A stretch of DNA of 50,164 bases from a virus (Duplodnaviria; Heunggongvirae; Uroviricota; Caudoviricetes), in the IMG/VR virus record IMGVR_UViG_3300014204_006419. One strand, 5' to 3'. Under the pieces are notes generated by a model that worked only from the letters and a program-made list of their open reading frames with translations, did not search any database and was not told the DNA's origin. The translations under genes and the position numbers were made by a program. Position 1 is the first letter of the stretch, and the number at the start of each line of letters is the position of its first letter. Positions 10,396 through 37,232 of this stretch are shown piece after piece.

Positions 10396-10797
10396 TCACA
10401 CACCCTGATTTATTTTTTCTATAGTTATATCTGCGCCAGGTACTCCGAATTCTTTTTTTGCGTAAATTTCTAGAATCAATGCGTCATCTCTGAATACTAC
10501 TTTGTTCATCGCATCTAGATATATCTTGAGATAATTGTCAATATCTGGATTTGTTATCGGGAATGTTTCTTTCTTCTTTGGGGCACTCTTTGGTTTTGTT
10601 TTACGCACGATTATTGAAACTTTCAAAGGACACTCAAATGGGATGAATCCATTTGGTAATTGAGTCGTTATCTGTGCGCGAATATCTGTTTCTGCATCCC
10701 TGGTTCTTTTTGGTGTATATGCAACCGCATGTCCGTTTATTGTTGCAATTTTTGGTCTTCCCTTGGGGATTGGTTCTCCGCGTATAATAAACTTCAT
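10396..10797 (-). CDS. rusA: RusA-family Holliday junction resolvase
   Basis: GEPIPKGRP, PDIDNYLKIYLDAMN and FRDDALI motifs. Confidence 0.9.
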   Translation of the reverse strand: MKFIIRGEPIPKGRPKIATINGHAVAYTPKRTRDAETDIRAQITTQLPNGFIPFECPLKVSIIVRKTKPKSAPKKKETFPITNPDIDNYLKIYLDAMNKVVFRDDALILEIYAKKEFGVPGADITIEKINQGV

Positions 10798-17222: not shown

Positions 17223-17848
17223 TCACGCTCGGTTTTCAATGCAGAACTCTCGTTGCTCCTGCGCTCGCTGGCTCGCTTGTCGCATATCGTCAGTTCCTGC
17301 ACCTCAGACTTCAATCGTTCCATTTCTGGGCAACCTTCGCATAACGCATCTATCAAATCTCGCACTTTGATTTTTAGCTTAAATTCTATATCGTCGCGCT
17401 CTTTGGTAAGCTTTACGTTCGCGTTAGTGAGTGCTTCAACGTCTAAATGCAAGTCGTGATTTTCAGACGACCATTCGTGTTCTCTTGTATTATGCTCTGT
17501 TCCGCCGCAATACTTACAGGTCAGTTTAGATTCAAGCTCTGCGACCTTTTGGGCTAAGCTGTCGGCACGAGCTTTTTGTTCTTCGTATAAGTCAGCATCT
17601 ACCCACGCTTCACGTTTTAATTTGCCGTCAAGTTTATCTTGTAGCAAATTGGCACGAGAACGCTCTGCCTTGATTAAGTTCTCAACGTCTTCGACTTTGT
17701 AATACTCTCCGAAATCATAGTTGATGCTCCAATCTTCTTGCTCGCCCATTCCGCCACATTCTCCGTCAGAAGAAATAAGATGAGAATAGCGAGTTAGTTT
17801 CGGTTCGTTTTCCGCGTTGTTTTCTTCGGTTTTAGTCATTTTTACCAC
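17219..17848 (-). CDS. Coiled-coil protein with CKYCGGxEHNTxEH motif
   Basis: Motif shared with 48879-49520. Confidence 0.7.
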   Translation of the reverse strand: MVKMTKTEENNAENEPKLTRYSHLISSDGECGGMGEQEDWSINYDFGEYYKVEDVENLIKAERSRANLLQDKLDGKLKREAWVDADLYEEQKARADSLAQKVAELESKLTCKYCGGTEHNTREHEWSSENHDLHLDVEALTNANVKLTKERDDIEFKLKIKVRDLIDALCEGCPEMERLKSEVQELTICDKRASERRSNESSALKTERD

Positions 17849-18336
17849 CTAACAGCAGCAGTCGTTTCTATTGACTCCGCAGATTCTACAATTTCCTGTT
17901 TTCTTTCTGCAACTCTCGCACTCATTTAATCCCCATGGCACGTTCGCTTCTATCGCGCCGTCTTTCCTACACGTTTCGCATTTCATTGGAAATCACCACT
18001 CAATCTTTGGCACTCTCGCAACTCTCATTTTTCGGCTCTGCGTATTTCGCGTATGGGCGAGCACAACCGCAAATACATCGTCCATCTCTGTTTCTAAGAT
18101 GAACTGGGGATACTGTTAAGTGAGATAATTCACATCCACAATACAAACAACTCAAACGGTCGTTCATTTCATCACGCTCACAAAACTACTTTCGTTCTAT
18201 AACTACCGTTGTAGTTGTTATGACTTTTGGTGGCGGCGGTTGAATGTAAATTGTCGTATTATTATCAAACACGTTGCACTCTGCGTCTTGTGGCATTTTC
18301 TTTAATTCCTCAATCAATTCCGAGACCTTCATTCAA

Positions 18337-19200
18337 TCACCCAAACAAATTCTTCTTGTACATCTTTGCTGCAGCTCTTGCGATTTCCTTTTCTGCCAAA
18401 TCACTCCAGACTACTTCTCCTTCTGATTCTCTCTTGACATCTTCTAGCATTGCTTCAATCACGAACTTGGTCTGCTCGATTGTAGTGAATGAGTTCTTGT
18501 CCAGGATATGCTGCAGTCTCATTGGAGTTACCCATTCATCTGAGATAGCTCTTGCTTCTTCCAGTACCTTCATCTTTGCTGGGTCTACTTCTCTTGGTGT
18601 CTTTGTTTCAATGAACTCTTCTCTCTTGTGCTTGAAAATCATCCTTTCTCCGTTCTTCTTGAATAGCTCAATTATTGGTCTTATTACGATTCCTTCGCGG
18701 GGCTTTCCAATGATTCCCAGGTTCCTGATTGCCTGGACTGAATCAGCATCTCTCTGCTTGTCTAGCTCGGACAGTTCGCATGGGATTCTTTCATAGTGAA
18801 CGAATTCAATTCCGAGACCATCACAGAAATCCTTGGCATTTGGGACATCTAGCCAGGAGTCTCCAATCTTCACATCGAACGCAATGAACTTGAGTTCCTT
18901 GCCGTAAGTCCCAGACATTCCTTGCAACTTTCCTCCATATGCTTCTCCATGGATACTCACTCCATCTTCTGGGAACTTCTCTGCTAGAACCTTGTTCAGA
19001 TTCTCCTTATCAAATAGAGCTACGAATGAATCGAAGTTTGCTCCGCCTGCGTGAAAGCCAAGCCTTGGTTCTCCTTTCTCAATAGGCTTCCAGTGAATTG
19101 CTGCGGAAGTTCCATGAATCTTTTCTGTTGCGAATACTTCCTTAAACAGAGTTAGAATCTCTGAGTTCTTGTACAAATTCTCGATGTGCGCGTATCCCAA
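18337..19200 (-). CDS. ATP-dependent RNA ligase, Rnl2-like
   Basis: Motif I EKIHGTS, GEAYG, FIAFDVK, REGIVIRP and FKHKREEFIE. Confidence 0.85.
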   Translation of the reverse strand: MGYAHIENLYKNSEILTLFKEVFATEKIHGTSAAIHWKPIEKGEPRLGFHAGGANFDSFVALFDKENLNKVLAEKFPEDGVSIHGEAYGGKLQGMSGTYGKELKFIAFDVKIGDSWLDVPNAKDFCDGLGIEFVHYERIPCELSELDKQRDADSVQAIRNLGIIGKPREGIVIRPIIELFKKNGERMIFKHKREEFIETKTPREVDPAKMKVLEEARAISDEWVTPMRLQHILDKNSFTTIEQTKFVIEAMLEDVKRESEGEVVWSDLAEKEIARAAAKMYKKNLFG

Positions 19201-21664: not shown

Positions 21665-21725
21665 ACGAAGGTCATCCTTCGTAATGTATTCCTTATGAAC
21701 CTACTACTATATAAAGGTATCGTTT
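21665..21725 (-). promoter_or_regulatory. Promoter plus leader hairpin ACGAAGG-ATGA-CCTTCGT, near-identical to 7601-7662
   Basis: About 47-nt match to 7615-7662 with one indel. Confidence 0.85.
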
Positions 21726-22225
21726 TAGAGTAGTGGTTTATACTTTCGGTATAACCTTTCTGCTACTGCGTCGGCATCAGGTTCAGTTCTTAGCTTGTAG
21801 AAACCGTGTTCATCTACGTAGGCAAAACTGCCATCCTGCAACTTTCTGATTGCTGCGTTCTCTGAGAATAAGTTCCTTAGAATCGGTACTCTGGATAGAT
21901 GTTCGTGTTCCGAGATTCGCTTTCTTCCTAATTGGTGGTGATGTGCGAACTCGTGCAAGAGACAGAAAACAAGTTCATCAAATCGGTTGTCAAACGTATA
22001 TTTGTTTTCTGAATACCTACCTCTTTTTGAATATCTGCCTATTCTGTCTTTTAGGCTTGGTGTGGTTCTCTCTGGTAGATAGATTGTTACTTTGTTTCCT
22101 TTTGAGACTCCGTTGATTGCTGCTATATTCTTTTCTTTGAATTCGATTGATACTTTTGTTGGAAGAAGATTCTGGGCTATGCTAACTGCTTCTTGCAATT
22201 CTTGCGTGTTGTAGTTAGTGCTCAT
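21725..22225 (-). CDS. Zincin-like metallopeptidase
   Basis: LLHEFAHHHQ (HExxH) and downstream EPDAD. Confidence 0.75.
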   Translation of the reverse strand: MSTNYNTQELQEAVSIAQNLLPTKVSIEFKEKNIAAINGVSKGNKVTIYLPERTTPSLKDRIGRYSKRGRYSENKYTFDNRFDELVFCLLHEFAHHHQLGRKRISEHEHLSRVPILRNLFSENAAIRKLQDGSFAYVDEHGFYKLRTEPDADAVAERLYRKYKPLL

Positions 22226-22229
22226 TGGA

Positions 22230-22406
22230 TTACCTTGTTACAACGCAACAGTAGCATTGATTTGATTTATATATTGACCTTGGGTGCTTCAAATGGCTAC
22301 AGATTCGATATACTAGATTTCCAGAAAGGTCTGCGTGATATACCTTATCCTTAGGGTTTGTGACTTCTTGAATCGCTTCTAGAAGTAATGCATCGGAATT
22401 ATTCAT
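22230..22406 (-). CDS. 58-aa hypothetical protein
   Basis: Manual translation MNNSDALLLEAIQEV...CYCCVVTR. Confidence 0.5.
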   Translation of the reverse strand: MNNSDALLLEAIQEVTNPKDKVYHADLSGNLVYRICSHLKHPRSIYKSNQCYCCVVTR

Positions 22407-22418
22407 AGTGTTTCACTC

Positions 22419-22583
22419 TCACAGTAACTTATCTATCTTTCCTTCTATCCCCAAACCTTCACCACGATTATACTCTTTTGTGTAACAATCTTGGCAAACA
22501 ACTTTTTCGTATTTTTTACCAGTGTCTATGAATACTGGGTCAGTTGTTTTTGTTCCACAGATAAAACATTTCAATGGTTTCAT
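22419..22583 (-). CDS. 54-aa zinc-ribbon protein ending in the KIDKLL tag
   Basis: Manual translation MKPLKCFICG...VCQDCY...GIEGKIDKLL. Confidence 0.7.
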   Translation of the reverse strand: MKPLKCFICGTKTTDPVFIDTGKKYEKVVCQDCYTKEYNRGEGLGIEGKIDKLL

Positions 22584-22593
22584 TTAGCCCACC

Positions 22594-22824
22594 TCACAGT
22601 AACTTCTCAATCTTTCTATCTAATGAACTTTTCTTGCTAACCCTGCTAGCTCGTTTTGCTTCGGTCACATCAATATCAATGTCTGTTCCACATCCCCAGC
22701 ACGAACCTGTCGCATTTACATTATTATCATATCTTGTTAGTTCTACTTCAGAACCACAATTTGGGCAAGTTGAATAAATATTTTCTGAATGTCCCATCTT
22801 AAATCCCTCCACTGCCGAACGCAA
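22594..22824 (-). CDS. Zinc-ribbon protein ending LDRKIEKLL
   Basis: CPNC and CWGC; C-terminal tag. Confidence 0.75.
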   Translation of the reverse strand: MRSAVEGFKMGHSENIYSTCPNCGSEVELTRYDNNVNATGSCWGCGTDIDIDVTEAKRASRVSKKSSLDRKIEKLL

Positions 22825-23125
22825 CTTCCTGTGCGTTTCGGATAAATGCTCCTTTCCTTTTTTCTAGCAGATTGGTGTTATCTAGATTCCTGGAGTTGTA
22901 AACCATATTCTCTGTGTATCTTGGTGGCTGACTTGGTTTGTAATTTGGATTATTCACTGGTGGGTGTTCCGCCTTCAATCCATGCTTGATTCTCAAATGG
23001 TCAATCACAATTATGTGGAGATACCTATTTGGAACCTTTTCGTGCTCCCATTTCTGCTGATTGAACTCAGCCCAGTATTCTTCTTGATTATACGTAAAAC
23101 TCATATTTTCACCTCTTATGTTCAT
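22799..23125 (-). CDS. Hypothetical protein
   Basis: ORF track. Confidence 0.6.
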   Translation of the reverse strand: MNIRGENMSFTYNQEEYWAEFNQQKWEHEKVPNRYLHIIVIDHLRIKHGLKAEHPPVNNPNYKPSQPPRYTENMVYNSRNLDNTNLLEKRKGAFIRNAQEVAFGSGGI

Positions 23126-23131
23126 GTTAGA

Positions 23132-23455
23132 TTACCGTTTTATAACTGATAGACCTTTTCTTTCTTTGAGTGGAACTATAAAATCTAATGCTCCAGGATT
23201 AATATTTGAAACGGCTAGACCAACTTTAGGATTTGCTGGGAGTGTATACATATTACCAAATAATTTATTTTGATTTTTGACTGCTTCGAGTACATTTGAT
23301 TTTATTATAGCATATTTTTTTCTATCATTTGGTTTATGCAAATTAAGGTATACAACTGGACGAATATATCCTACTGCGTAACTTGGTGCAGGAGATAATC
23401 TGTAGTCTGTTGTGAATTTTATGCCGTATATTGTTAGTTTATCCATAGTGTTCAC
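23132..23455 (-). CDS. Hypothetical protein
   Basis: ORF track; GAGGTGA RBS. Confidence 0.7.
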   Translation of the reverse strand: MNTMDKLTIYGIKFTTDYRLSPAPSYAVGYIRPVVYLNLHKPNDRKKYAIIKSNVLEAVKNQNKLFGNMYTLPANPKVGLAVSNINPGALDFIVPLKERKGLSVIKR

Positions 23456-23457
23456 CT

Positions 23458-23880
23458 CTATAAGAACGGTACTATTTTTTCATCAATTTCTTCTTCGTGG
23501 AACGTAATGCACTGATAAACTTTTGCTAGCGCATCGCTTCTTCTTGCGTAGTTCGCAGGAGTATCATATGCATAGCCGTACTTTGAATATGCAGCAACTT
23601 GATATGCAGCAGGCATTCCGATGTCTCTCTTATTTACTGGCTCGATTAGGTCGATAGTTAATTCTCCGTCTGCGGTTTTGTATTCCTTTGTGAACTTGTT
23701 TGCTTGGCGGATTTTCATCCCAATAATCTTGACATACGAATCTGTTATCGCGGAACCCCATCTGCCAATTGCGTATTCATATGCCCTTTTTATTGTTGGA
23801 AATTCGTTCTTGAAGTTAGTCGTGTCTGTTTGTCTCCTTACTTCTGGATGAAAGATTAAAACATATTCCATGTGTCTCAC
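23458..23880 (-). CDS. Hypothetical protein ending IDEKIVPFL (tag variant)
   Basis: ORF track. Confidence 0.7.
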   Translation of the reverse strand: MRHMEYVLIFHPEVRRQTDTTNFKNEFPTIKRAYEYAIGRWGSAITDSYVKIIGMKIRQANKFTKEYKTADGELTIDLIEPVNKRDIGMPAAYQVAAYSKYGYAYDTPANYARRSDALAKVYQCITFHEEEIDEKIVPFL

Positions 23881-24188
23881 CTCAGCAAATCATCTACTCT
23901 GTCAACGATTCTTTCTTTCCTCAGTGGTGCGAGATTTCTCAGACCAACTGATAATTGGTGAACGAGTGGAGCATCTACCTCATCGAATTCTCTTCTAGCT
24001 GCTTCTTCGACTCGTTCTCCGAATCTTCCTGGTGTGTACCTTCCGAAGACTTCTCCACCTTCATGCAAACGTCCAGCAATAGTGCGATATGGTCTGATAG
24101 AGTATTCTGCATTCTTGCCTCTGCCCCAGCGGATTAATTCAATTTGGTATCCGTCCTTGAGTTTCCTGGTTTTGATTACAACGCCCAT
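23877..24188 (-). CDS. Hypothetical protein ending VDRVDDLLR (tag variant)
   Basis: ORF track. Confidence 0.7.
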   Translation of the reverse strand: MGVVIKTRKLKDGYQIELIRWGRGKNAEYSIRPYRTIAGRLHEGGEVFGRYTPGRFGERVEEAARREFDEVDAPLVHQLSVGLRNLAPLRKERIVDRVDDLLR

Positions 24189-24421
24189 CAGAATACACCC
24201 GCCTTGTGGTCTGCACCGAATGCCATCGCTCTTATTAGGTCAAGTGCTTGATTCTTCGTTAGACCTGTTTGATATGTGCTCAGCATTCTTTGACCGCTCT
24301 TGTCGTATATATCAACTGCGCAGTATCCGTACCTATATCCGACATCTATCTTTACGTTCAGCATTGCAGATACTTTTTCTGCGACAGTTTCGAGTTGTTC
24401 TCTTGTAATTCTTTCAACCAT
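24188..24421 (-). CDS. Hypothetical protein
   Basis: ORF track. Confidence 0.65.
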   Translation of the reverse strand: MVERITREQLETVAEKVSAMLNVKIDVGYRYGYCAVDIYDKSGQRMLSTYQTGLTKNQALDLIRAMAFGADHKAGVF

Positions 24422-24793
24422 TTAAATCACCCACTTCACGTTTTCTTTAACTTCTCTGTCGATATTTCTGCTCAAATTTCTCATTGCCTTTGGTCTCTTA
24501 ATATTGTTTCTGGCGTAATGTTTAAAGCTTTCGGTTCCTTCGAGTTCTTCGTCAATTTCGTGTTCCAAGTATCCTGCCTTGTCTAGAGCGATTCTAGTTC
24601 TCGAATCCGCATGAGCGTATGCGCATTCATTTCCTCTCTTTATTCTGTCTGCCCATTCTGCCAAGTATCCATAGGAATGCTCTAGTGGAAATCTTGTTGA
24701 CGCAAATTTGATGAACCTTGCTTGTTCTACTTTGCTTAGTGGAAAGAATTCCGCTGCAACTTCTTTGATTAGAGTTATTCCCATTGGCACCAC
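24422..24793 (-). CDS. Hypothetical protein (IDREVKE near the C-terminus)
   Basis: ORF track. Confidence 0.7.
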   Translation of the reverse strand: MVPMGITLIKEVAAEFFPLSKVEQARFIKFASTRFPLEHSYGYLAEWADRIKRGNECAYAHADSRTRIALDKAGYLEHEIDEELEGTESFKHYARNNIKRPKAMRNLSRNIDREVKENVKWVI

Positions 24794-24794
24794 C

Positions 24795-25013
24795 TCATAA
24801 CAGTTCTTTTATCTTTCTGTCAATTGTTGATTTTGCGTACCATTTGCTTGACCAAAGTTGTGCGCCTACTTGATTATCAATAACGAACATCTCTTTATTG
24901 TCGCTTGGGCTAAATTGTGATTTGGCATATGAAATTGCTTCGCGTTGATTCGAGAATGTTTCGTCCAGGTTTCCTTCTCCGTAATATACGTAGTATCGGT
25001 CTTTCGAGTTCAT
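24795..25013 (-). CDS. Hypothetical protein ending IDRKIKELL
   Basis: ORF track; C-terminal tag. Confidence 0.75.
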   Translation of the reverse strand: MNSKDRYYVYYGEGNLDETFSNQREAISYAKSQFSPSDNKEMFVIDNQVGAQLWSSKWYAKSTIDRKIKELL

Positions 25014-25023
25014 GATTTCACCT

Positions 25024-25308
25024 TCATAACAGTTTCTCTATTCGGTCATCAATTCCGCTGCTTATGCGCTTTGCGATTGTTCTTCTTATTGCTTCACGTG
25101 CGTATTGTGGAAGATATTCGGGATTGTCGTATGTAACCCATCCATCTGGTTGCACGTGTGGATAATCCGTATGCCCACCTGCAACTGTGACAAGCATCTT
25201 TTTTCCTTCTCTGAAAGGTCTTGGGTCATCTACTGCGACAAGAGCATAGATTCCCTTTTGCCATAAAATTTCTTCGTTCTTGTATGTTGTCAATGCCATT
25301 GGTTTCAC
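25024..25308 (-). CDS. Hypothetical protein ending IDDRIEKLL
   Basis: ORF track; C-terminal tag. Confidence 0.75.
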   Translation of the reverse strand: MKPMALTTYKNEEILWQKGIYALVAVDDPRPFREGKKMLVTVAGGHTDYPHVQPDGWVTYDNPEYLPQYAREAIRRTIAKRISSGIDDRIEKLL

Positions 25309-25310
25309 CT

Positions 25311-25589
25311 CTAATCTCTTGAGCTTAATTCTTCACGAATCGAACTTCCCAAGTCTGCTAAACGTATTCTGCTCGGTCTTTCCAATTCGTGAGAGCGTAA
25401 TTCGTGCGCATGAACTCGTTTCGGTTGAATTCTTTCTACGTAAACACTGTGAATCGGTACTTCATTACCAACTTGTGATTTTATCTTTCTAAGAATCTTT
25501 CGCGTGGCTTCGCGCTTGTCTTTGGCGTTTACTACTTCTGTGTAATGTGCGCCAAGCCCAACTTCAACACTGCTTCCATATCTTGCCAT
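25311..25589 (-). CDS. Hypothetical protein
   Basis: ORF track; GAGGTG RBS. Confidence 0.65.
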   Translation of the reverse strand: MARYGSSVEVGLGAHYTEVVNAKDKREATRKILRKIKSQVGNEVPIHSVYVERIQPKRVHAHELRSHELERPSRIRLADLGSSIREELSSRD

Positions 25590-25598
25590 TTTAACACC

Positions 25599-25853
25599 TC
25601 AATTTACTGGAAATAATTTCATATAATCTTTCATGTACTTTCTTGCTTTCACAATAGAGCTGACTATGGTTAATATCTGCTCTTTACCTGTGAACGTGTT
25701 TCTTAGAATTACACAGTAGTTGTCCATTGCTGCAGAGAATTTCTTTGCAATCAACGCATGGTTATCTTGGTAATAAACTCCCTGAGTATATACGTTGTCA
25801 CTTTCTTTTATCCATCCTGTTCCCATCATCTTCACCTCAGAGTAATTTCTCAA
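25599..25853 (-). CDS. Hypothetical protein (true start probably MMGTGW)
   Basis: GAGGTGAAG precedes ATGATG. Confidence 0.65.
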   Translation of the reverse strand: MRNYSEVKMMGTGWIKESDNVYTQGVYYQDNHALIAKKFSAAMDNYCVILRNTFTGKEQILTIVSSIVKARKYMKDYMKLFPVN

Positions 25854-26151
25854 CTTTGTCGTTCCAGCCGTATGGATTAATCTGCTCAGATTTTCCGCTG
25901 CGGCTTAAATCCAAGTTTCCTGTACTTGAATCGTAGTTCCACCACTTTCCAGAAGTTCCGATATATCCGACTTGTTTGTGGCTGAATGAATTCCGTGCAT
26001 CCCACAAGTTTGCTTGAACCCATTTGTGTCTATTCTCTTCTGCATATTTGATTGCCTTTGCAAGACTGCCAAATCTTTTAGAAGCTTTCTGGGTAAATTT
26101 CTTATCCCCCACATTCCAATATTCCCAGTACCAGTATCCCATTGTCTTCAC
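25837..26151 (-). CDS. Hypothetical protein ending NDKVEKLL
   Basis: ORF track; C-terminal tag. Confidence 0.75.
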   Translation of the reverse strand: MKTMGYWYWEYWNVGDKKFTQKASKRFGSLAKAIKYAEENRHKWVQANLWDARNSFSHKQVGYIGTSGKWWNYDSSTGNLDLSRSGKSEQINPYGWNDKVEKLL

Positions 26152-26152
26152 C

Positions 26153-26503
26153 TCATTTCTTAGGAATTTCTATAATTTCTGCTAACCCTTGGTTAGTATA
26201 AAAACTATTTCGGATATTCGATTTGTCAAATGCATATCTTTCTTCTATTCCTCCGTATCTATCCTTTACAATAAATCTCTTTAGATATGGACTAAAATCA
26301 AACATTATGCCAAGAAGTGGTACTCCGCGTTTGCTATAGGTATTTGACACAATATGCTGGAATACGTAGTCCTTCTCTTCACGTGTCAGTGGTTTTCCAG
26401 ACCATGCTTTCTGATGAATATCGAAAATCTTGGTTCCGATTACGTTTTCGATTTTCCCTCGGTCATTGAATGCGTATAATCCCTTGTATCCCATTGTCTT
26501 CAC
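26153..26503 (-). CDS. Hypothetical protein
   Basis: ORF track; start region identical to the previous gene. Confidence 0.7.
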   Translation of the reverse strand: MKTMGYKGLYAFNDRGKIENVIGTKIFDIHQKAWSGKPLTREEKDYVFQHIVSNTYSKRGVPLLGIMFDFSPYLKRFIVKDRYGGIEERYAFDKSNIRNSFYTNQGLAEIIEIPKK

Positions 26504-26504
26504 C

Positions 26505-26735
26505 TCAGAGTAACTTGTCTATCCTCTTGCTGATTCCTTTTACTGGACTTTCACTTTCTAGGATTCCGACTGTCTCGGCAATTTCCATGGCTGCTTCAGA
26601 TGTTTCAATCTTTGTATTCTCGAAAATGTCTTCAGCAAACCTACCTAGGTCTGATGCTAACTTTGGATTAGTTTTAACTACGTTTCTTGCGTAATGAATT
26701 GCTTCGTAATATCCATCTGGTAATCCGTGTTCCAT
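26505..26735 (-). CDS. Hypothetical protein ending ISKRIDKLL
   Basis: ORF track; C-terminal tag. Confidence 0.75.
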   Translation of the reverse strand: MEHGLPDGYYEAIHYARNVVKTNPKLASDLGRFAEDIFENTKIETSEAAMEIAETVGILESESPVKGISKRIDKLL

Positions 26736-26747
26736 GTTTATTTCACC

Positions 26748-27221
26748 TCAAAGTAAATTGTCTATTTTTTTATCCAACTTTGTATTCTTAATAAATTTGC
26801 TTACTGTTCCAGCATGTATGACTTCATTCACATTCCCCTTTCCATATTTTTCTTCTGCTCGCTTCATAGCTTCTGATTTTGTTTTAGCTTCTATATCATC
26901 ATAAATTCTCATGTTTTCTCCGTGCCCCAAATCGTTCATTAGGGGTCTCCAGACTTCTGTTTGCTGAACAGTTACTGCTCCACTTTCAAGTGCGCCACGA
27001 AGAGTTTTATCTGATTGTGATGCAGGTACTAAATCTTCTAGGAATATTCCGCGAACTCGCCCGTCATCAAATCTTACCCATGCCATTTTTCTTCCTGGGT
27101 CGGAAAATCCTTCTAAACGAATTCCTGCATTATCGTTATCTCCAAAAAATCTAGATGCACCTTCTATTGAAACTCGTTCTCCAACTTTTGGAATTCTGAA
27201 ATGTCTTCCCATGTCAATCAT
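26748..27221 (-). CDS. SH3/Tudor-like two-module protein ending LDKKIDNLL
   Basis: KVGERVSI...AWVRFDDG pattern; C-terminal tag. Confidence 0.7.
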   Translation of the reverse strand: MIDMGRHFRIPKVGERVSIEGASRFFGDNDNAGIRLEGFSDPGRKMAWVRFDDGRVRGIFLEDLVPASQSDKTLRGALESGAVTVQQTEVWRPLMNDLGHGENMRIYDDIEAKTKSEAMKRAEEKYGKGNVNEVIHAGTVSKFIKNTKLDKKIDNLL

Positions 27222-27631
27222 CTCCTTGGTTTTAACTCCTTTTCGTTTCCGTGCCCAATAAAATCCAAATGGTCGTAACCTACGTTAATCCAGCTACCAG
27301 ACTCTACTCCATACCTCTTTCTTAATTCAGCGAGAAGTTCATTGCTCTGTGGACTCCAGATAGTTGGATTCCAGTATGCGGTACCTTTTATGAATGGTCT
27401 TCCGAATTTATCTTTACCTCTTTCAGTAATTTTGATTTTTATTTTGTATTCACTTGCAGCAGGCATTGACGCTCCTTCGTAAACAATAATCGCTTTGTTC
27501 ATCCCAAGCATTCGGCTTTCTACTTGCGAGTATCCTTTATTCTCGTACATGGTTTTGAGTCTCTCGCCTTTCCTTATACTCTTTATATCATTCAAATCTA
27601 CAATGATTTCGTATCGAGCCATGATAGTCAT
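27218..27631 (-). CDS. Hypothetical protein
   Basis: ORF track. Confidence 0.7.
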   Translation of the reverse strand: MTIMARYEIIVDLNDIKSIRKGERLKTMYENKGYSQVESRMLGMNKAIIVYEGASMPAASEYKIKIKITERGKDKFGRPFIKGTAYWNPTIWSPQSNELLAELRKRYGVESGSWINVGYDHLDFIGHGNEKELKPRR

Positions 27632-27939
27632 CTCCTCTTCGCCAAACTATTTTCATTAACGTAATGCAATAATCCTGTTTTGCTATCTCTGACGCGATAC
27701 TTTGTTGGGTCTTCGTGGTCTCCTTTTCGGATATGTGTTATAACCCCTAGTTCAGTTCCATAGTATTTTACTTCGTCTCCTATATCCAAAGGTTCTTTGT
27801 ATAATAGTTTTCCACATGTTTTGCAGGTCGTGAATGGATTACTTATAATTGGGATGTAATTTGCTCCGCAGTATGGGCACATATGAGTTTCATGCTTGTT
27901 GCGGATTGGTTTGATAATGCTTTCAAGGTCTTGTTTCAT
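27628..27939 (-). CDS. Zinc ribbon plus SH3/KOW-like domain protein
   Basis: CPYC and CKTC; IGDEVKY...GVITHI...YRV. Confidence 0.65.
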   Translation of the reverse strand: MKQDLESIIKPIRNKHETHMCPYCGANYIPIISNPFTTCKTCGKLLYKEPLDIGDEVKYYGTELGVITHIRKGDHEDPTKYRVRDSKTGLLHYVNENSLAKRR

Positions 27940-27960
27940 TTGCTCACCCTTTCAATCATA

Positions 27961-27990
27961 TTGTTTAAACCATACTTTATAAACCTTTAC
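27961..27990 (-). promoter_or_regulatory. Promoter GTAAAGGTTTATAAAGTATGGTTTAAACAA heading the small-gene operon
   Basis: Similar to 35654-35684. Confidence 0.65.
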
Positions 27991-30900
27991 ACTCCGTCAA
28001 AGATATTCGGTATTTGTCTAGTTCTTGATTGTGGTACTCTTGGTGATAGCTTTGGCATTGGTGCCCTTGGCTTTGCTACTGGTCTTTGTTGTGGTATATC
28101 AAGGATTGGTCTGATTCCAGCACCGCTCATATCAATTGCTCCACCATGGATGTTGAATATCTCTGCTGCTAGTGATGGGTTGTACTTTGTAACTTGTCTT
28201 CCTGCTCCGAAGTACGAATCGGTTCCTCTTGATTCCCCCCCACCTAAACCGAATGACGGCAGAACTAACCCTGGCAATTCGGTTTTGAGTTTCTCTTGGG
28301 TTCTGGTATCTTCTCGTGGTTTTGTTTTTGTTTTTTCTTCCACTATTTCTTTTACTTCATATCTAGGTTCTTTTACTCTTTCTTCAACTTTATAATCTGG
28401 GTTTGTTATTTCATATGCTTTCACTCTTGATATTTCTATTGGTTTGATTATGGTAAGTTCTTTTGTTCTAACTCCTTCAATATCAAATGGTCTAGTTAGT
28501 TCCATCTCTATTACTCTAGTTTGAATGCGTCTTTCTGCTTTTTCTATTTCAATTGGTTTTATTCTTGTTTTTGTTTTTTCTCTTTCCAGTTCTCTTGCCT
28601 TTTCTTTGTATCTTGAAAGCTCATCATCAATTGTTCTCTCGATTGGGCTTTTTGGTCTAGTCAATTTATTCTTATTAGCAAGTAAATCTCCTACTTCTGA
28701 ACCTAGGTATTCTTGTTTTGTTAGTTCATTATCAAATGGTCTTTGTTCCATTACTGTTTCGGTTCTTTGCATTTTTCCTTTTTGATATATCGGTTCTCCT
28801 TCTCCAAATGGTCTAAATTGTCCTTTGCTTGTTCTACCTAAGTCAAATTCAAAAGTCTTTCCGTATGCTGGCTTTCCACTTTCGAAGAATTCTGTCGCGT
28901 ACGCACCTTTTGCTTTTAGTCCTTTGGTTGAAACTTGTCCTAGGAATCTTGGTTCGGCTCCTTCTAGACCATAAGTTACTCCAGCTACTCTAGTGCGAGA
29001 AATTGGCGTTCCTTCGTATATTCCCCCAGTGAATTCTCCCGCAATTCCTGCACTTGGAGTTGTCTCAAATGGTTTGTAGACATTGGCTTGAACTGAGGTT
29101 TTACCTATTACGCTAGGTGCACCTTCTCCGTATTTAACTCCAACTTTGGTTTCTCCCATTCTAACTTTTGCGAGTGGACTTGCTTGTAATGCACCTGCGG
29201 TATATAATCCAGTACCAAGAGCTGCACCAGTTAAGAAACTTTCTCCTAGTCCTTCTGCAGTGAATGCTTTCTGTTGTGCTTCTTCGCCTCTCCAGCCAAG
29301 TGCTTTTGTCCCAGTATCAACTGCGCCAAGTCCTATTCCGCTATATGCAACCACTTTTCCAAGATTCATTGCACTATAATCGCCTTGTTGTATTCCATAT
29401 TTATTCCATGCAGAAGAAACCGCGGGGATTTTTACAGACTTTCCAACTTTACTAGCAATCGCTCCACCAATCCCTGCAGCTCCACCGAAAGCTGCAGTAC
29501 CTAACGCAGATTCTGCTGCTGCAGAATAATCAAATGGTTTCTTCTCGATTATATTGCTAGTTAGAGAAGCCGCTGCCCCACCTGCACCAAATGCGACAGT
29601 TTGTTTTGCGATATTCCCAATGGTGCCAGATAATGCTTTAACTCCGCCAATTGCACCAGCAACTTTTGTGAATCCACCCATTTCTACAGTTTGCTTTCCT
29701 ACGTTGTATGGATTGTATGCTGCAGATGAACCTTGCCCAAGTGCAGAACCAATTACATTACTTGCTATTGCTGCACCCGTAGAAGTTACAAATCCTATTG
29801 GAGTTAATGTCCCAGCTAGCGAAAGTGCCGATGTTCCGACACTTAGAGCGGCTTCCCCAGTATTTCCGATAACCGCACCAAATCCCCCTTGTAGAGTTGT
29901 TTCTTTGTCAAGTGCTTCAGATATTTTTGCTCCATACTTAGATGGTGCATAAGCAATATTTTCTACGTTGGTTACTACTCCTTGACCTACTCCACCAAGA
30001 TATTCAGTTACAGATGCACCAATCCGATTTCCACCTGTAAATTCTAATGCTCTCTGATGTCTAGCTTCTGATAGCGCAGCTTCGTCTATTCCTGGTTTAA
30101 CTATTGCTGCAGCCTGATTCCAGTATTGCTCTGGATTTGCTTCATTTGCTTGTTTTTGTATTTCTTCGTAAGATTCTGGTGTTAGTGTAGTTCTTAGAAG
30201 GTCTTGGTTTGCATTGAATGCTTCTTGTATTTTAGCTTGCTCTCCTCCAGCGTGTTGAAGCATTCTGTAAGCAGATGCTGTGTTTCCTGCTTGCCAAACT
30301 AAGTTCCCAGTTGAATCCTTTACTAATGTGAATTCATTTGGTGTTTCGGAATAGAACTCGCCTTGTTGCGGAGTCCATTGAATTTTGTATCCTTCAGTAC
30401 CTGGAGTCCCTGTAGTCAATGCATTAGTAGCTAAATCGGTGTAGTTTGTTTTAACCAAATCTCCTTTGATTGCATTTACTCTTTGTATATTTGATTTTTG
30501 TTCTGCAGTGATTGCATTTTGATTTTTGAGTTCTTCTACGTCTACTACCTGTTTTACTGCTTGTTCACCTTGGTATGCGCGAATGTCTGATATGTTCTGT
30601 TTAACTGTTGCTAGTGTTTCTGCATCATAGTTTTCAGGATTAGCTACAATCGCAGCGAGAGTAGTTGTTCTCCCAGTATCTCCGATTGCAATCGGATTCT
30701 GATTTATCAAATATTCGGCATGTCCAACTTCCCATGCGTGATATTTTGCTAATTGTTCTGGGTCATCTGTTTGTAGTACGTATCCTTCCTTTGTTGACAT
30801 ATTCGCATATGGATTGTAATTTAATGAATAATCTTCTACCTTGGTAGGTTCTGCTGGAGTAGCTGGCTTTATTGTTTCCGTACCTGCTCGAATAGTTTGT

Positions 30901-32560: not shown

Positions 32561-32956
32561 TCAGAATCGTATTTCGAATTGTCTCCATCTTGGTTCTCTA
32601 AAAGATGGTGGATGAAATGGGTATGATGGAATTGTATTCGGAAATGTACCAGGCTGTGGTGTGTATGGAGTTTTCGTTGGTTCTGGTTGCGGTGAACTTG
32701 GTGTAGTCGGTGAGTATGGAATTATCTCTGGTTGCGGTGAACTTGGTGTAGTCGGTGAGTATGGAATTATCGTTGGTGGAAATATGCTTGGAGTTGGAAT
32801 CCAAGGATTTGAGGGAAATGGAATTGGTGAAAATGGTTTGACTTCTTCTATGCATCCACGTCCATCACATTTCTGGCAGTGGTGAAATCCGTGAACTTCG
32901 CATTGTTCTTTTCCAGTTCCATTACAAATTGGACATCTCTTTCTCATCAATATCAC
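32561..32956 (-). CDS. DnaJ-type CxxCxGxG zinc finger plus Pro-rich disordered region
   Basis: CPICNGTG and CQKCDGRG; IIPYSPTTPSSPQPE x2. Confidence 0.7.
   Translation of the reverse strand: MILMRKRCPICNGTGKEQCEVHGFHHCQKCDGRGCIEEVKPFSPIPFPSNPWIPTPSIFPPTIIPYSPTTPSSPQPEIIPYSPTTPSSPQPEPTKTPYTPQPGTFPNTIPSYPFHPPSFREPRWRQFEIRF
32682..32771. repeat. Perfect 45-bp tandem duplication
   Basis: TCTGGTTGCGGTGAACTTGGTGTAGTCGGTGAGTATGGAATTATC x2. Confidence 0.95.
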
Positions 32957-33579
32957 CTGCGTTTATTCAAACGATTCATAAAATCTTCGTATCGTGCTTG
33001 GCTTAGTTCTTGCGGTTCAGATGCTGCACGGTAAGTATTTACTTTTCTGAGTGCATCCATCTCTGCATCTATTTCCATTTCTCTTCTTACCTTTGAATAT
33101 ATTCGTGGAATCTTTCCTAGACGTTGCAATCTTTCTAAATAAATGGGGTCATTTTTTGCATTTAAGTCTACCTGACGCAGATTGTGGATTTGTTCAGCGT
33201 GGCGTAATTCATGTGCAGCAGTATACACTGTTGCGTCTCCAATTTCTCCGCTTTTGAATCTTGTTCGAATGTAACCTTTATTATCTGCTTTACCTTCTTG
33301 ATACCGTTTTGGTACTGTTCTTCTTTCAGATGTTTCTGGAGCTACTTCCAAATAAATATCTACATAACCAGGTTTTCGGTGCCATGAAGCTACTCCAGTT
33401 CTGTCGTTTAAAAATTTACTTTGTTCAGATTTATCAACGAACACAATCTGTCTGGTATTTTTTATTGCTGCTTGTGATGGTTGTGCATATCGAACGATTC
33501 TTCTCAACACAGCATCAGGTACTCGGTATCCTTTGTAGTCTCCTCTGCCAGTTCGATTTATAATATCCATGCCAATCAC
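32953..33579 (-). CDS. Zincin-like metallopeptidase domain protein
   Basis: AAHELRHAEQ (HExxH) and EIDAE. Confidence 0.7.
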   Translation of the reverse strand: MIGMDIINRTGRGDYKGYRVPDAVLRRIVRYAQPSQAAIKNTRQIVFVDKSEQSKFLNDRTGVASWHRKPGYVDIYLEVAPETSERRTVPKRYQEGKADNKGYIRTRFKSGEIGDATVYTAAHELRHAEQIHNLRQVDLNAKNDPIYLERLQRLGKIPRIYSKVRREMEIDAEMDALRKVNTYRAASEPQELSQARYEDFMNRLNKRR

Positions 33580-34058
33580 ATTTGCATTGTTGCATTGCTT
33601 GGCTTTCCGTAAGTTACGATTGCTAGCAAGCAGCTCAGTGCCAGAATGATTATCGGGAAGTTTGATACGAGCCAGGTGGTATTGGGGAACAACGCTACCG
33701 CTGCAGCTAGTGCAGGTTGCGCTGAGACGTTTAGATATACTTGTGAGAGGATATACGAAAACATCACTGAGATTAGCTGGACGAAAATCATCAGGAAGAA
33801 GAACGCGGGATGCGCTCTTATGCTGAATGCAGAGATAATTGCTACGAGTGAAAGCCCGATGAAAAGAAGTACTCCTATGTAATCAAACATTCCGAATGTG
33901 TTGGTGGTAGTTTGCACTGCGGTCTTAGCGGTATCGGGAAATAGAAAGCTTGACTGAATCTCACTATTGAAAGCCATGCAAGCATATGCTCCGATGATAC
34001 CTATGATTCCAAATGCTACAACGTAGAAAGAAATTGGAATCGCGTCGAACATACTCAT
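33576..34058 (-). CDS. Multi-pass (about 4 TM) membrane protein
   Basis: Hydropathy. Confidence 0.75.
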   Translation of the reverse strand: MSMFDAIPISFYVVAFGIIGIIGAYACMAFNSEIQSSFLFPDTAKTAVQTTTNTFGMFDYIGVLLFIGLSLVAIISAFSIRAHPAFFFLMIFVQLISVMFSYILSQVYLNVSAQPALAAAVALFPNTTWLVSNFPIIILALSCLLAIVTYGKPSNATMQM

Positions 34059-34256
34059 GTTTTATACCTCAGATTCCTTCGTTTTTTAGTCTATCTGCCA
34101 TTTTGTATAATTCGTCTGGTGATACCGAACCTATGAATTGCTTTCCTTTATGAATCTGTATTGCTGACCTGCTTACCCTTGTTAATTTTATTTTTCCATG
34201 TTTAGTGTTCGTCCAGTATCTTAGCTCTTCTTTGGAATAGTGCATATCGGTTCACC

Positions 34257-35636
34257 TCAGTCTAGGTGGAAGTTTGGAATATGTGCTCTCGGCAATCTTG
34301 GAGTTGGAGACCTGAAATCTCTTGTATTCACATCTGGGATATTAGCTCTTGGTAGGCGTGCTTCTCTGGTGTGAACATTGAAATTTGTACGCACGTCGTT
34401 TGTTCTGATGTCCCTCATTTGCACTGGATTTGTATTTACGCGCATCTTACCTTCAAATGCGACTTTCGGGATATTCACTGCGCCACCACCGAAAATCTGG
34501 TCTGGCGGAGCAGGTCTTCTTTGTTGACCATATGCTTGTGGCACTCTAGGAGATTGTCCCATTCCACCAATAAGCTGGTCTGGTTGATTTGAAACGCTTT
34601 GACCCATTCCTCCTTCGAATGCTGGAGCGAATCCACCTCTCCTTGGTTGTTGATAGTTTCCACTTGGCGTTCCGTACTCTTCTATGATTACTCTTCTGCG
34701 CACTCCTTGCGATGATTGTGGATAAGTCTGTTGTGGTCTTTGCTGAGGTCTTTGCTGTGGCTGTGGTCTTGGTTGCTGTTGAGGTGCTTGCTGCGGTGAT
34801 TGTTCTTGCTCTTGTGATTCTTCAGGTAGCAATGCATTGAATATCCTTTCTTTCTGTTCTTCGGTTAAATGTGGCTGGCTTTGCAAGAAAGTAACTATCG
34901 CACGTTCCTTCTGTTCATCGCTCAAAAGTTGATTAGATAGATAATTCCTTAGATAGTAAAATGCTTGCTCTTCTGAATATCTTGGTGCGAGCATTTGGTT
35001 TACTCCAGTCGAATCTATTGCATTCTGAACTGAGATGTTTGGTGCAACTCTCTTGATTTCGTTTGATACCACAGTAATTGGATTATTCTCAATTTGGGAT
35101 TTCACTGTTTGCATCTTCTGACGATAAAGTTCTCCCTTCAATGCTTCTAAGTTTTGCTGTCTTTCTAATGATTCGTATTCTGCTTCGATACGATTTTCTT
35201 CTGCTTCCATCTTTGCATTTCTAATTTGAGCAAGTTTTCTTCTTTGAATCTCTTCGTTAATTCTTCTCTGAGCGTCTATCTTTTGCTTGTTAAGTTCAAA
35301 ATTAAGCCTGCGTGTTTCTGCATCTGTTTTAAATTTTTCTCTTTCTGCTTTTCTGTATTCGTTTTGTGCTTCGTGCCTTAATCTATCTTCTTTTTTTCCT
35401 AGTTCAGTATCAAGATTCTCTAGCGAATATCTTTCACGAATATCCTCTCTCTGGCTTGCGCTAATGTGAGGGGCTACTTTCTTTTCAAAATGAGTATCTT
35501 CGATTTGCTCTTTATCTTTTCCGATAGAACTAGTGAAACCAGATATGCCTTTGGCGATTCCCTTTAGTTTATCCGTCAATCCATCCTTAGATTGATTCTC
35601 TTTCGCTTGCTCCATAAATTCGTTGAAGTCAACCAT
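34257..35636 (-). CDS. Coiled-coil protein with Q/P/R-rich disordered C-terminal half
   Basis: ORF track; composition. Confidence 0.75.
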   Translation of the reverse strand: MVDFNEFMEQAKENQSKDGLTDKLKGIAKGISGFTSSIGKDKEQIEDTHFEKKVAPHISASQREDIRERYSLENLDTELGKKEDRLRHEAQNEYRKAEREKFKTDAETRRLNFELNKQKIDAQRRINEEIQRRKLAQIRNAKMEAEENRIEAEYESLERQQNLEALKGELYRQKMQTVKSQIENNPITVVSNEIKRVAPNISVQNAIDSTGVNQMLAPRYSEEQAFYYLRNYLSNQLLSDEQKERAIVTFLQSQPHLTEEQKERIFNALLPEESQEQEQSPQQAPQQQPRPQPQQRPQQRPQQTYPQSSQGVRRRVIIEEYGTPSGNYQQPRRGGFAPAFEGGMGQSVSNQPDQLIGGMGQSPRVPQAYGQQRRPAPPDQIFGGGAVNIPKVAFEGKMRVNTNPVQMRDIRTNDVRTNFNVHTREARLPRANIPDVNTRDFRSPTPRLPRAHIPNFHLD

Positions 35637-35653
35637 TTTCCCTCACCTGCCCT

Positions 35654-35684
35654 TTGTTTAAATTTCATTGCTTATAAACTTTAC
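35654..35684 (-). promoter_or_regulatory. Promoter GTAAAGTTTATAAGCAATGAAATTTAAACAA
   Basis: Similar to 27961-27990. Confidence 0.6.
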
Positions 35685-35706
35685 CTCAATAATTTACTAC
35701 TTATTC

Positions 35707-36726
35707 TTATTTTCTATTTCGCTTTACTTGTTCCATGAAGTTTTCGAATCTTGATTGTCCGTATTCTGCTGGCTCGTTGATTGATTCATTTCTTCGGATA
35801 TACGCATCGTTAGAATCTTGGAGGTCTGCTCGTTCTCTGTCTTTATTCCAATAATCTGCTTGTCTCATGAAATGTTCAAATCTATTTTGACCTACTTCCC
35901 CAGATTGATTTATCTGCCTAAGTCGTAATTGTCTTTGGTATCTTGATTCTTCATTTTCTACTTTATTCATATCGTTAAAAGTTGTATCCATTCTCTTTCG
36001 TTCTGCCCATGGATTTCTATTTTGGCTTGCGTTTACAAATCTACTATATCTGCTTTGGCTTACTTCATTTGGTTCTCTGATTCTCTCTCTCGTTTCTTGT
36101 GAAGGTTCGTATCGTTGAACATATCTTGCAAATCTTGCGGATGATTTTTGCATTTCGTTTAGACTTCTATTTCCAGTGTATTCTGGCGCAACATTTGGAT
36201 TATCAAATTTCATGCCTGCTGGGTGCATAAACCCAGTTCCTTTCATTACTTCCCATTGCATATTCTTAGGAACCGTTTGATTGTATCTACTGATTATTCC
36301 ACGTGCTCTTGCGGTAGATGTTGAATTCTTTAGCATTATGTATGGATGTGGATTTGTTCTGTCTTCGTGTCCCCCACAAGACCCAAATGTTGTCGCTCCA
36401 GCGCGAGTAAGCTGTACGCATGATTTTCTTATTTTTGGGTCTATACCACTTGACCAGTCTCCACCTTTAACGTGCTCGGTAATGAATACTCGGTGCGGGG
36501 TAATTCCACCAAAGTCATCGTTTACTCCTAATTGTCTTCCTTCTTCCCTAGATAACAATGCCATATTTGTTGAATGGATATTCAATCCTTTGCGAGTCAA
36601 TCTTCGGGATACTGCGTCGATTACTTTCATATTCTCTGAAGCTATTGGGTTTCCGTATTTGTCAACTATTGGATAGTAGGTAATTCCATCTACTGTGTAT
36701 GGTTTACTAGATAAGGCGGACTCCAA
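35707..36726 (-). CDS. Protein with TYW3-like IDP..SCxGH module and three C-terminal QxRFExF repeats
   Basis: IDPKIRKSCVQLTRAGATTFGSCGGH; start revised to TTG 36726 because the promoter at 36762-36786 lies inside the listed ORF. Confidence 0.6.
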   Translation of the reverse strand: MESALSSKPYTVDGITYYPIVDKYGNPIASENMKVIDAVSRRLTRKGLNIHSTNMALLSREEGRQLGVNDDFGGITPHRVFITEHVKGGDWSSGIDPKIRKSCVQLTRAGATTFGSCGGHEDRTNPHPYIMLKNSTSTARARGIISRYNQTVPKNMQWEVMKGTGFMHPAGMKFDNPNVAPEYTGNRSLNEMQKSSARFARYVQRYEPSQETRERIREPNEVSQSRYSRFVNASQNRNPWAERKRMDTTFNDMNKVENEESRYQRQLRLRQINQSGEVGQNRFEHFMRQADYWNKDRERADLQDSNDAYIRRNESINEPAEYGQSRFENFMEQVKRNRK

Positions 36727-36788: not shown

Positions 36789-37232
36789 CTACTTTGGCAT
36801 GAGCCAATTATAGAACTGGTCTAGATTGAGCAAGGTGCAGATTCTAGCTGGCGTGATTCCCTGCCATGCAATAATTAGAATCGCTATGATGATTCCCAAT
36901 GCGAGAAGTTTGTGTTGGCTTGCCCAATATCCTATCTCGTAATATAAAGAGTTGTTCTGGTAATCGTAAGCTCGGTAAGAACTAGAACTTGAATAGCTTC
37001 TTTGTTGGATTGGTGGTTTGTAATCTGGAGAGCTTCTTAAATCGTAATCTGCTCGTTTCTGTGGATTGCTCAGTGTTTCATTCGCTTCACTGATACTTTT
37101 GAATATTTCTTCTGAACCTTTTGCTTTATTTACATCTGGGTGGTACTTCATTGCCAGTTTCTTGAATGCTACATTTATCTCGTCTTGCGTAGCCGTCCTC
37201 TGTACACCGAGGACATTGTAAAAGTCGCCCAT
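36789..37232 (-). CDS. J-domain (DnaJ-like) protein with C-terminal TM helix
   Basis: [15 protein letters not shown] and [11 protein letters not shown]. Confidence 0.9.

Follow-up and report, generated by a model that had tools for sequence, protein, structure and literature searches.

A short C-terminal peptide shared by dissimilar small proteins of one operon in a circular mobile element may act as a docking motif

The DNA analyzed here is a stretch of 50,164 nucleotides (IMG/VR virus record IMGVR_UViG_3300014204_006419; hereafter the window) from an archaeal mobile element or virus of about 114,545 bp (114.5 kb). A 114,686-base ENA metagenome contig of this element closes through a 141-base terminal overlap, and the window runs without a break from the end of the contig to its start at 17374-17514; therefore, the element is circular. 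About 103 kb of the 114.5-kb circle was covered by walking along the ENA contig, and statements about the circle refer to this part. The DNA of the window is found both in the ENA contig and in a public landfill run. Nearly all genes in the window are on the minus strand. Their starts are preceded by GAGGTGA-type ribosome-binding sites (RBS), and TATA boxes of archaeal type divide them into blocks (there are six TTTATATA sites on the minus strand, each of them intergenic). One block is an operon whose products frequently share a C-terminal peptide, here called the tag. Seven products end in a strict [KR]-[IV]-x-x-L-L-stop, and the wider consensus is hydrophobic-D-x-[KR]-I-[DE]-K-L-L. Beyond these, one product ends in …DDLLR and three have weaker versions, so that at least eight and perhaps eleven block proteins carry the tag. 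All C-terminal endings quoted in the original prediction for this DNA are present at the stops to which they were assigned, and the operon of about 20 genes that it described does hold 20. The features are listed below; proteins are referred to by the lower coordinate of their genes.

21725..27939, minus strand: operon of 20 tightly packed small genes (54-166 amino acids), from the open reading frame (ORF) list and sequence
27955..27990, minus strand: putative archaeal promoter of the block, with a TTTATAAA box about 35 nucleotides upstream of the first ATG, inferred by reading the sequence
26751..26777, minus strand: LDKKIDNLL, strict tag of a 157-amino-acid protein (26748-27221), from sequence
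26508..26534, minus strand: ISKRIDKLL, strict tag of a 76-amino-acid helical protein (26505-26735), from sequence
25840..25866, minus strand: WNDKVEKLL, strict tag of a 101-amino-acid Trp-rich protein (25837-26142), from sequence
25027..25053, minus strand: IDDRIEKLL, strict tag of a 91-amino-acid protein (25024-25299), from sequence
24798..24824, minus strand: IDRKIKELL, strict tag of a 72-amino-acid protein (24795-25013), from sequence
22597..22623, minus strand: LDRKIEKLL, strict tag of a 67-amino-acid protein with four Cys in CxxC pairs (22594-22797), from sequence
22422..22448, minus strand: IEGKIDKLL, strict tag of a 54-amino-acid protein with four Cys in CxxC pairs (22419-22583), from sequence
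23880..23909, minus strand: IVDRVDDLLR, variant tag of a 103-amino-acid protein (23877-24188), from sequence
23461..23487, minus strand: IDEKIVPFL, variant tag of a 137-amino-acid protein (23458-23871), from sequence
24425..24463, minus strand: IDREVKENV followed by KWVI, degenerate internalized tag of a 120-amino-acid protein (24422-24784), from sequence
21728..21754, minus strand: LYRKYKPLL, degenerate tag of the last gene product, a 166-amino-acid protein with a metalloprotease-type HEFAH motif (21725-22225), from sequence

The block appears to be transcribed from one predicted promoter, as had been proposed. Its TTTATAAA box, at about 27975-27982, is 5' of the first gene and is unlike the cassette promoters at 21708, 15140, and 7645, which have CGATACCTTTATATAGTAGTA, and there is no minus-strand TTTATATA TATA box inside the block (the next is at 21708-21715). 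A GAGGTGA-type RBS precedes nearly every gene start in the block and abuts or overlaps the preceding stop; in most block genes the stop codon overlaps the following RBS (TGAGGTGA). The extra Arg after Leu-Leu in the 23877 protein arises because its stop sits within the GGTGA of the next RBS. Junction DNA is repeated along the operon in segments of 22-31 nucleotides with 68-100% identity, which cover the stop, the RBS, and nearby codons. The junctions at 26134-26155 and 26486-26507 have 22 identical bases over the RBS, start codon, and first codons, so two neighboring unrelated proteins both start with MGY; these shared bases suggest that junction segments were copied or recombined. Similar ends, …NENSLAKRR and …NEKELKPRR, are also found in the two leading genes of the operon (27218-27939), both untagged.

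Recurrence of the tag is well beyond chance. In 2000 residue shuffles of the 213 called proteins of the element, strict endings occurred 0.02 times on average and twice at most, compared to seven observed, and a chance motif is rejected on this basis. When the last nine residues of the same proteins were compared all against all without reference to any motif, the tag family accounted for 19 of the 25 best pairs. No gene outside the block ends in the tag in the whole window or in about 103 kb of the circle, in agreement with the confinement originally noted. A DNA pattern of tag, stop, and RBS had no match in the viral contig collection. It had 25 single matches in the metagenome collection, which is about the chance expectation; only two of these were at an ORF end, and none had a second tag nearby.

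In this operon, the amino acids of the tag are what selection keeps. Information in the tag is at codon positions 1 and 2, and third positions are nearly free. Leu-Leu is invariant although it is encoded by four different codon pairs, a synonymous variation that had been noticed before and that favors specific recognition over mere hydrophobicity. For 21 pairs pooled, the nine tag codons have a proportion of synonymous differences (pS) of 0.97 and a proportion of nonsynonymous differences (pN) of 0.30, and the last six tag codons have pS 1.03 and pN 0.18, compared to pS 0.72 and pN 0.69 for the nine codons preceding the tag. Synonymous sites in the tag are thus saturated while replacements are rare. 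Tag DNA is only 37-67% identical in most pairs; the adjacent pair at 22419 and 22594 reaches 81%. Untagged genes of the operon have the same TGAGGTGA junction behind other endings (…PKK, …PVN, …SRD), so the junction does not dictate the peptide. Constraint from the RBS or on nucleotides in general is rejected on these grounds. Judging from the junction repeats, the tag module probably spread when junction segments were duplicated or recombined, and selection then kept it. Selection on the peptide, as originally proposed, is therefore upheld by the tag values (pS 0.97, pN 0.18-0.30), and neither of two alternatives the original prediction had set against itself, RBS or nucleotide constraint and an equal frequency throughout the genome, was found.

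The bodies of the tagged proteins are dissimilar, as had been stated. BLASTP found no similarity among them, and the best hhalign probability was 15% over 18 columns; paralogy of the bodies is rejected. No block product has a significant Pfam or PHROG family. None has a hydrophobic segment, and the block products are soluble. Fold labels given to these proteins earlier hold in part: the zinc ribbon rests on CxxC pairs and sub-threshold Pfam hits and the zincin on the HEFAH motif only, and the SH3-like label was not confirmed. An exhaustive phmmer search with the 157-amino-acid protein (26748) returned four distant metagenomic homologues of its N-terminal domain only. Three of these are stand-alone proteins about 80 residues long. 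The tag is missing from the ends of all four; a partial homologue of the same protein from the word-indexed protein search is also without it. These tag-less homologues indicate that the tag is an add-on, and as far as the relatives of this one body can tell, it is modular. In word-indexed searches with three block proteins, the matches were the proteins themselves and this one partial homologue; the 91-amino-acid protein (25024) and the last-gene protein (21725-22225), two of the three, matched only themselves.

Two small contigs with distant homologues of the 26748 N-terminal domain (L001, 597-2038; L079, 2468-3093) hold tiny genes in arrays, none with the KLL tag. These genes abut or overlap stop to start, apparently without an RBS, and their products start alike (one contig has MSHH, MSHK, MVHH, MVHR, or MPHK, and the other has MALKDW twice). 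Five separate stretches of a metagenomic protein of 906 amino acids (P0007) match the same domain, which indicates that this small domain exists elsewhere as a tandem repeat.

The circle encodes an integrase and an archaeal-type S-adenosylmethionine (AdoMet) synthase, AglB, glycosyltransferases, radical-SAM enzymes, RNA ligases, Ro60, RlaP, a J-domain protein, two giant surface proteins, and a great number of small orphan genes. Its set of RNA and DNA repair genes is unusually rich for a mobile element: RusA-type resolvase, HNH_3 endonuclease, and RNA-ligase families are encoded at 10396-10797, about 17600-17990, and 18337-19200, and a second, T4 Rnl1-like ligase, RlaP, and Ro60 are elsewhere on the circle. 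In the J-domain protein (36789-37232, 147 amino acids), the J-domain is complete (Pfam DnaJ, E 4e-24) and is followed by an uncharacterized C-terminal part of 80 residues; the protein may be an adaptor to host Hsp70. Three adjoining larger genes at 32953-36726 have a second terminal peptide in common: a 339-amino-acid protein ends in …SRFENFMEQVKRNRK, a 208-amino-acid HExxH protein ends in …QARYEDFMNRLNKRR, and a 459-amino-acid protein between them starts with MVDFNEFM. No capsid, portal, terminase, prohead-protease, or encapsulin family was recognized in about 103 kb of the circle by precomputed Pfam lists and PHROGs, which highly divergent structural genes could escape. Because no capsid, portal, or terminase family was recognized, the element may be a virus or plasmid-like.

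Information on the host comes from sequence comparison. No species genome encodes an AdoMet synthase with more than 48% identity to that of the element, and the top matches are one Thermoproteota metagenome-assembled genome (MAG) and several DPANN MAGs. Guanine-plus-cytosine (GC) content of the element is 40%, like the DPANN genomes (38-46%) and unlike the Thermoproteota genome (55%). RBS counts did not discriminate among candidate host genomes, and Hsp70 is present in all five of these. The element has no DNA match to deposited phages, and viral contigs held no relatives of three of its proteins.

The helical hydrophobic moment of the strict tags is 0.53-0.82, and six of the seven exceed the 90th percentile (0.61) of the C-terminal 9-mers of the element, whose median is 0.32. 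Net charge of the tag is -1 to +2, with two acidic positions conserved, and Gly, Ser, or Thr immediately precedes six of the seven strict tags. In two low-confidence single-sequence AlphaFold 2 models the tag is a separate last helix behind a coil; in the 26505 protein (predicted local distance difference test score 58) it lies in a terminal helix at residues 64-75. From these predictions the tag looks like a strongly amphipathic, nearly neutral helix behind a Gly/Ser/Thr hinge. We consider it somewhat probable that the tag serves as a modular short linear motif for docking onto one common partner, which would be private to the element or specific to a host lineage. The hydrophobic face (position 1, Ile5, Leu8, and Leu9) would fit a groove of one shared reader protein, specificity would come from Asp2, Lys/Arg4, and Asp/Glu6, and all tagged products would thereby be gathered at one partner or place. 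Helix formation, docking, and a single reader are the parts of this account that we infer. As the tag was not seen in the other collections searched, the reader is likelier to be encoded by the element or specific to a host lineage than to be a universally conserved hub. The last protein of the block, with its HEFAH motif, looks more like another client than the reader because it carries a degenerate tag itself.

A more specific form of the docking motif is conceivable, although doubtful: a private addressing system in which an element-encoded reader of no known family gathers about ten unrelated effectors into an assembly, a compartment, or a delivery route. Such a system would exemplify a broader and so far undescribed practice, in which large archaeal viruses and plasmids each use a genome-specific terminal peptide of their own as an address.

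Several points weigh against a docking motif. The reader was not found, and PCNA, TPR, PDZ, and MIT families are absent from the precomputed Pfam lists for the circle. A co-fold of two copies of the SepF core with the C-terminal 35 residues of the 22594 protein scored 0.06, which speaks neither for nor against binding; the run had no alignments or controls, and SepF was taken from a DPANN genome (G004), possibly not that of the host. Among the copies of the tag DNA, some are 81-87% identical, so part of their likeness is recent common descent. Evidence on the tag comes from a single genotype. Positions 21700-28000 of the window are letter-for-letter the same in two public sequencing runs from separate studies, a landfill metagenome and a groundwater metagenome, so the block has no natural polymorphism between them; with one genotype in public data, conservation across relatives cannot be followed. 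The structure models are of low confidence, and so short and amphipathic a helix could also be a degron or a membrane anchor.

Terminal degrons are a known use of short C-terminal peptides. AAA+ proteases, including archaeal PAN in vitro, read ssrA-type tags with non-polar ends. In the present operon, Leu-Leu-COOH and the upstream residues could have the products degraded quickly by a host unfoldase-protease (Lon, or the proteasome with PAN or Cdc48), perhaps with the help of an adaptor, and restrict the proteins to a short time window. The tag does sit at the extreme C-terminus, its free end is a non-polar dipeptide that is strictly conserved, and it is carried by many unrelated proteins of a single transcription unit. 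However, its nine constrained positions, acidic and basic ones among them, exceed the needs of known terminal degrons, and one variant has an extra Arg beyond Leu-Leu. A degron is unlikely for these reasons.

Viral proteins can imitate host motifs, and human cytomegalovirus pUL71 is a documented case of viral mimicry of an MIT-binding motif (PMC11218997). The tag could similarly imitate a tail that binds a host hub, namely the FtsZ C-terminal peptide (read by SepF), the PCNA-interacting peptide (PIP) box, or the ESCRT-III MIT-interacting motif 1 (MIM1) helix (read by the Vps4 MIT domain). LDRKIEKLL and the Methanobrevibacter smithii FtsZ tail LDDFIDGIF, anchored at the C-terminus, match by residue class at six of nine positions, among them two Asp of the latter that form ion pairs with SepF (PMC8178401). 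The I-x-x-L-L spacing corresponds to positions 4, 7, and 8 of the PIP box, which in archaea is located at the extreme C-terminus (PMC3504372). The hydrophobic-x-x-[KR]-hydrophobic-x-x-L pattern of the tag resembles MIM1. On the other hand, the 29 FtsZ tails collected from the DPANN phylum to which genome G003 belongs read …ELGIEFVD, with Phe at the Lys position of the tag and an acidic last residue, and 30 FEN1 tails from the same phylum read …QKGLGDFF, while the tag is without Gln and both aromatics. The TACK-type CdvB is without MIM1 (PMC7240154), so MIM1 mimicry would require an Asgard-type host; in addition, the Cdv-type genome among the AdoMet-synthase matches (G001) has a GC content of 55% compared to 40% for the element. 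All three look-alike motifs fit loosely, which shows the low specificity of such matches. Taken together, mimicry of these tails is rather unlikely.

Short peptides load cargo in encapsulins and in phage T4 capsids, and the original prediction had put forward loading of effectors into the virion. The tag would then bind the inside of a capsid or shell, and the proteins would be packaged and delivered with the genome. Its layout fits this function, as unrelated proteins each end in a short peptide that comes after a flexible hinge, and the block follows a 1336-amino-acid protein with Gly/Ala-rich segments, which we take to be of the kind found in tape-measure or ejection proteins. Against it, the capsid, portal, terminase, protease, and encapsulin families were unrecognized in the circle, and ESM Atlas look-ups of the neighboring 459- and 339-amino-acid proteins gave nothing usable. 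We find cargo loading quite unlikely. Of the earlier interpretation, a modular, peptide-level tag that fits a shared routing or docking signal stands, while virion loading lost ground because no capsid, portal, terminase, or prohead-protease gene was recognized.

Amphipathic helices of the MinD, FtsA, or SepF type bring proteins to the cytoplasmic membrane. The high helical hydrophobic moment, the terminal position, and the preceding hinge of the tag are compatible with such a helix. However, the targeting sequences compared carry +1 to +4 (MinD +4, FtsA +3), and the tag, with its charge of -1 to +2 and two conserved acidic positions, does not combine a net positive charge with a broad hydrophobic face as MinD and FtsA do. 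Just nine residues are available, and the invariant Leu-Leu and Ile5 exceed the needs of amphipathicity, so membrane targeting is very unlikely. Finally, a functionless tag, either a relic of a junction cassette (tag codons, stop, and RBS) copied by gene insertion or swap or a product of RBS or mRNA constraint, would account for the junction repeats, the two junctions with 22 identical bases, and the 81% identical adjacent tags, but it is disfavored by the low DNA identity of most tag pairs, saturated synonymous sites with rare replacements, information at codon positions 1 and 2, and the same junction in untagged genes, and appears highly improbable.

Large archaeal mobile elements consist mostly of small uncharacterized proteins without links to one another, and a shared, selected tag provides a handle on them. 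A docking motif would imply that about ten such proteins act at one partner or place, and its nine residues could serve as bait for the retrieval of the latter. Should the reader turn out to be a new receptor, or a host hub such as the machinery of division or replication, it would show how such elements organize or deliver effectors, and a small portable targeting peptide for archaea would be gained.

Comparison with known terminal peptides helps to place the tag. The archaeal FtsZ tail has a nearly invariant G-I-D core near the C-terminus, and in the FtsZ/SepF complex (PDB 7AL2; PMC8178401) the M. smithii tail shares hydrophobic-D-x-x-I-[DE]-x-hydrophobic-hydrophobic with the tag in the same C-terminal register. 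Six of the seven strict tags have I-[DE] at a distance of four residues from the C-terminus, with Lys/Arg, not Gly, before that Ile. Most archaeal tails compared read GI[ED]F[VIL][DN], with Phe after I-[DE] where the tag has Lys. In the DPANN set, 28 of 29 FtsZ tails have Phe at this position and the tags have Lys, Asn, or Glu; the M. smithii tail (IDGIF) is an exception to the hydrophobic residue right after I-[DE]. The FtsZ peptide binds extended, while the tag is predicted to be helical, and a hidden Markov model built from three SepF sequences found no SepF-like protein in the element.

PIP-box tails of archaeal PCNA clients, and clamp tails of T4 gp45 clients, resemble the tag in being hub-binding motifs with aliphatic-x-x-hydrophobic-hydrophobic spacing that many unrelated proteins carry at their extreme C-terminus (PMC3504372). 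The consensus has aromatics at positions 7 and 8 (PMC3504372), where eight tags have Leu-Leu and one has Phe-Leu. The small aliphatic residue of position 4 is present as Ile or Val in all seven strict tags. At position 1, 27 of the 30 DPANN FEN1 tails have Gln and the tags have D, S, E, N, or V; the hydrophobic-Asp at tag positions 1-2 has no PIP counterpart. MIM1, as it is generally given, is (D/E)xxLxxRLxxL(K/R) in a C-terminal helix, and it is read by MIT-domain Vps4 of the Asgard or eukaryote type. Hydrophobic position 1, [KR]4, I5, and L8 of the tag agree with this pattern, the final K/R occurs only in the 23877 variant, and the upstream acidic residue is absent.

The T4 capsid targeting sequence (IPI-III, Alt) is N-terminal and is removed by the prohead protease. 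Like the tag, it is one short terminal address peptide on unrelated proteins of a mobile genome; unlike it, the tag is C-terminal and ends at a free carboxylate, and no prohead machinery was found in the circle. Encapsulin and microcompartment peptides are short, terminal, and often helical, and they follow a flexible linker on co-encoded unrelated proteins that dock to one receptor surface. The tag has a different sequence, and no shell or capsid gene was recognized with it, but its layout is alike. In general kind it would belong with the known address or docking peptides that several proteins share, whereas its sequence form and its setting are new.

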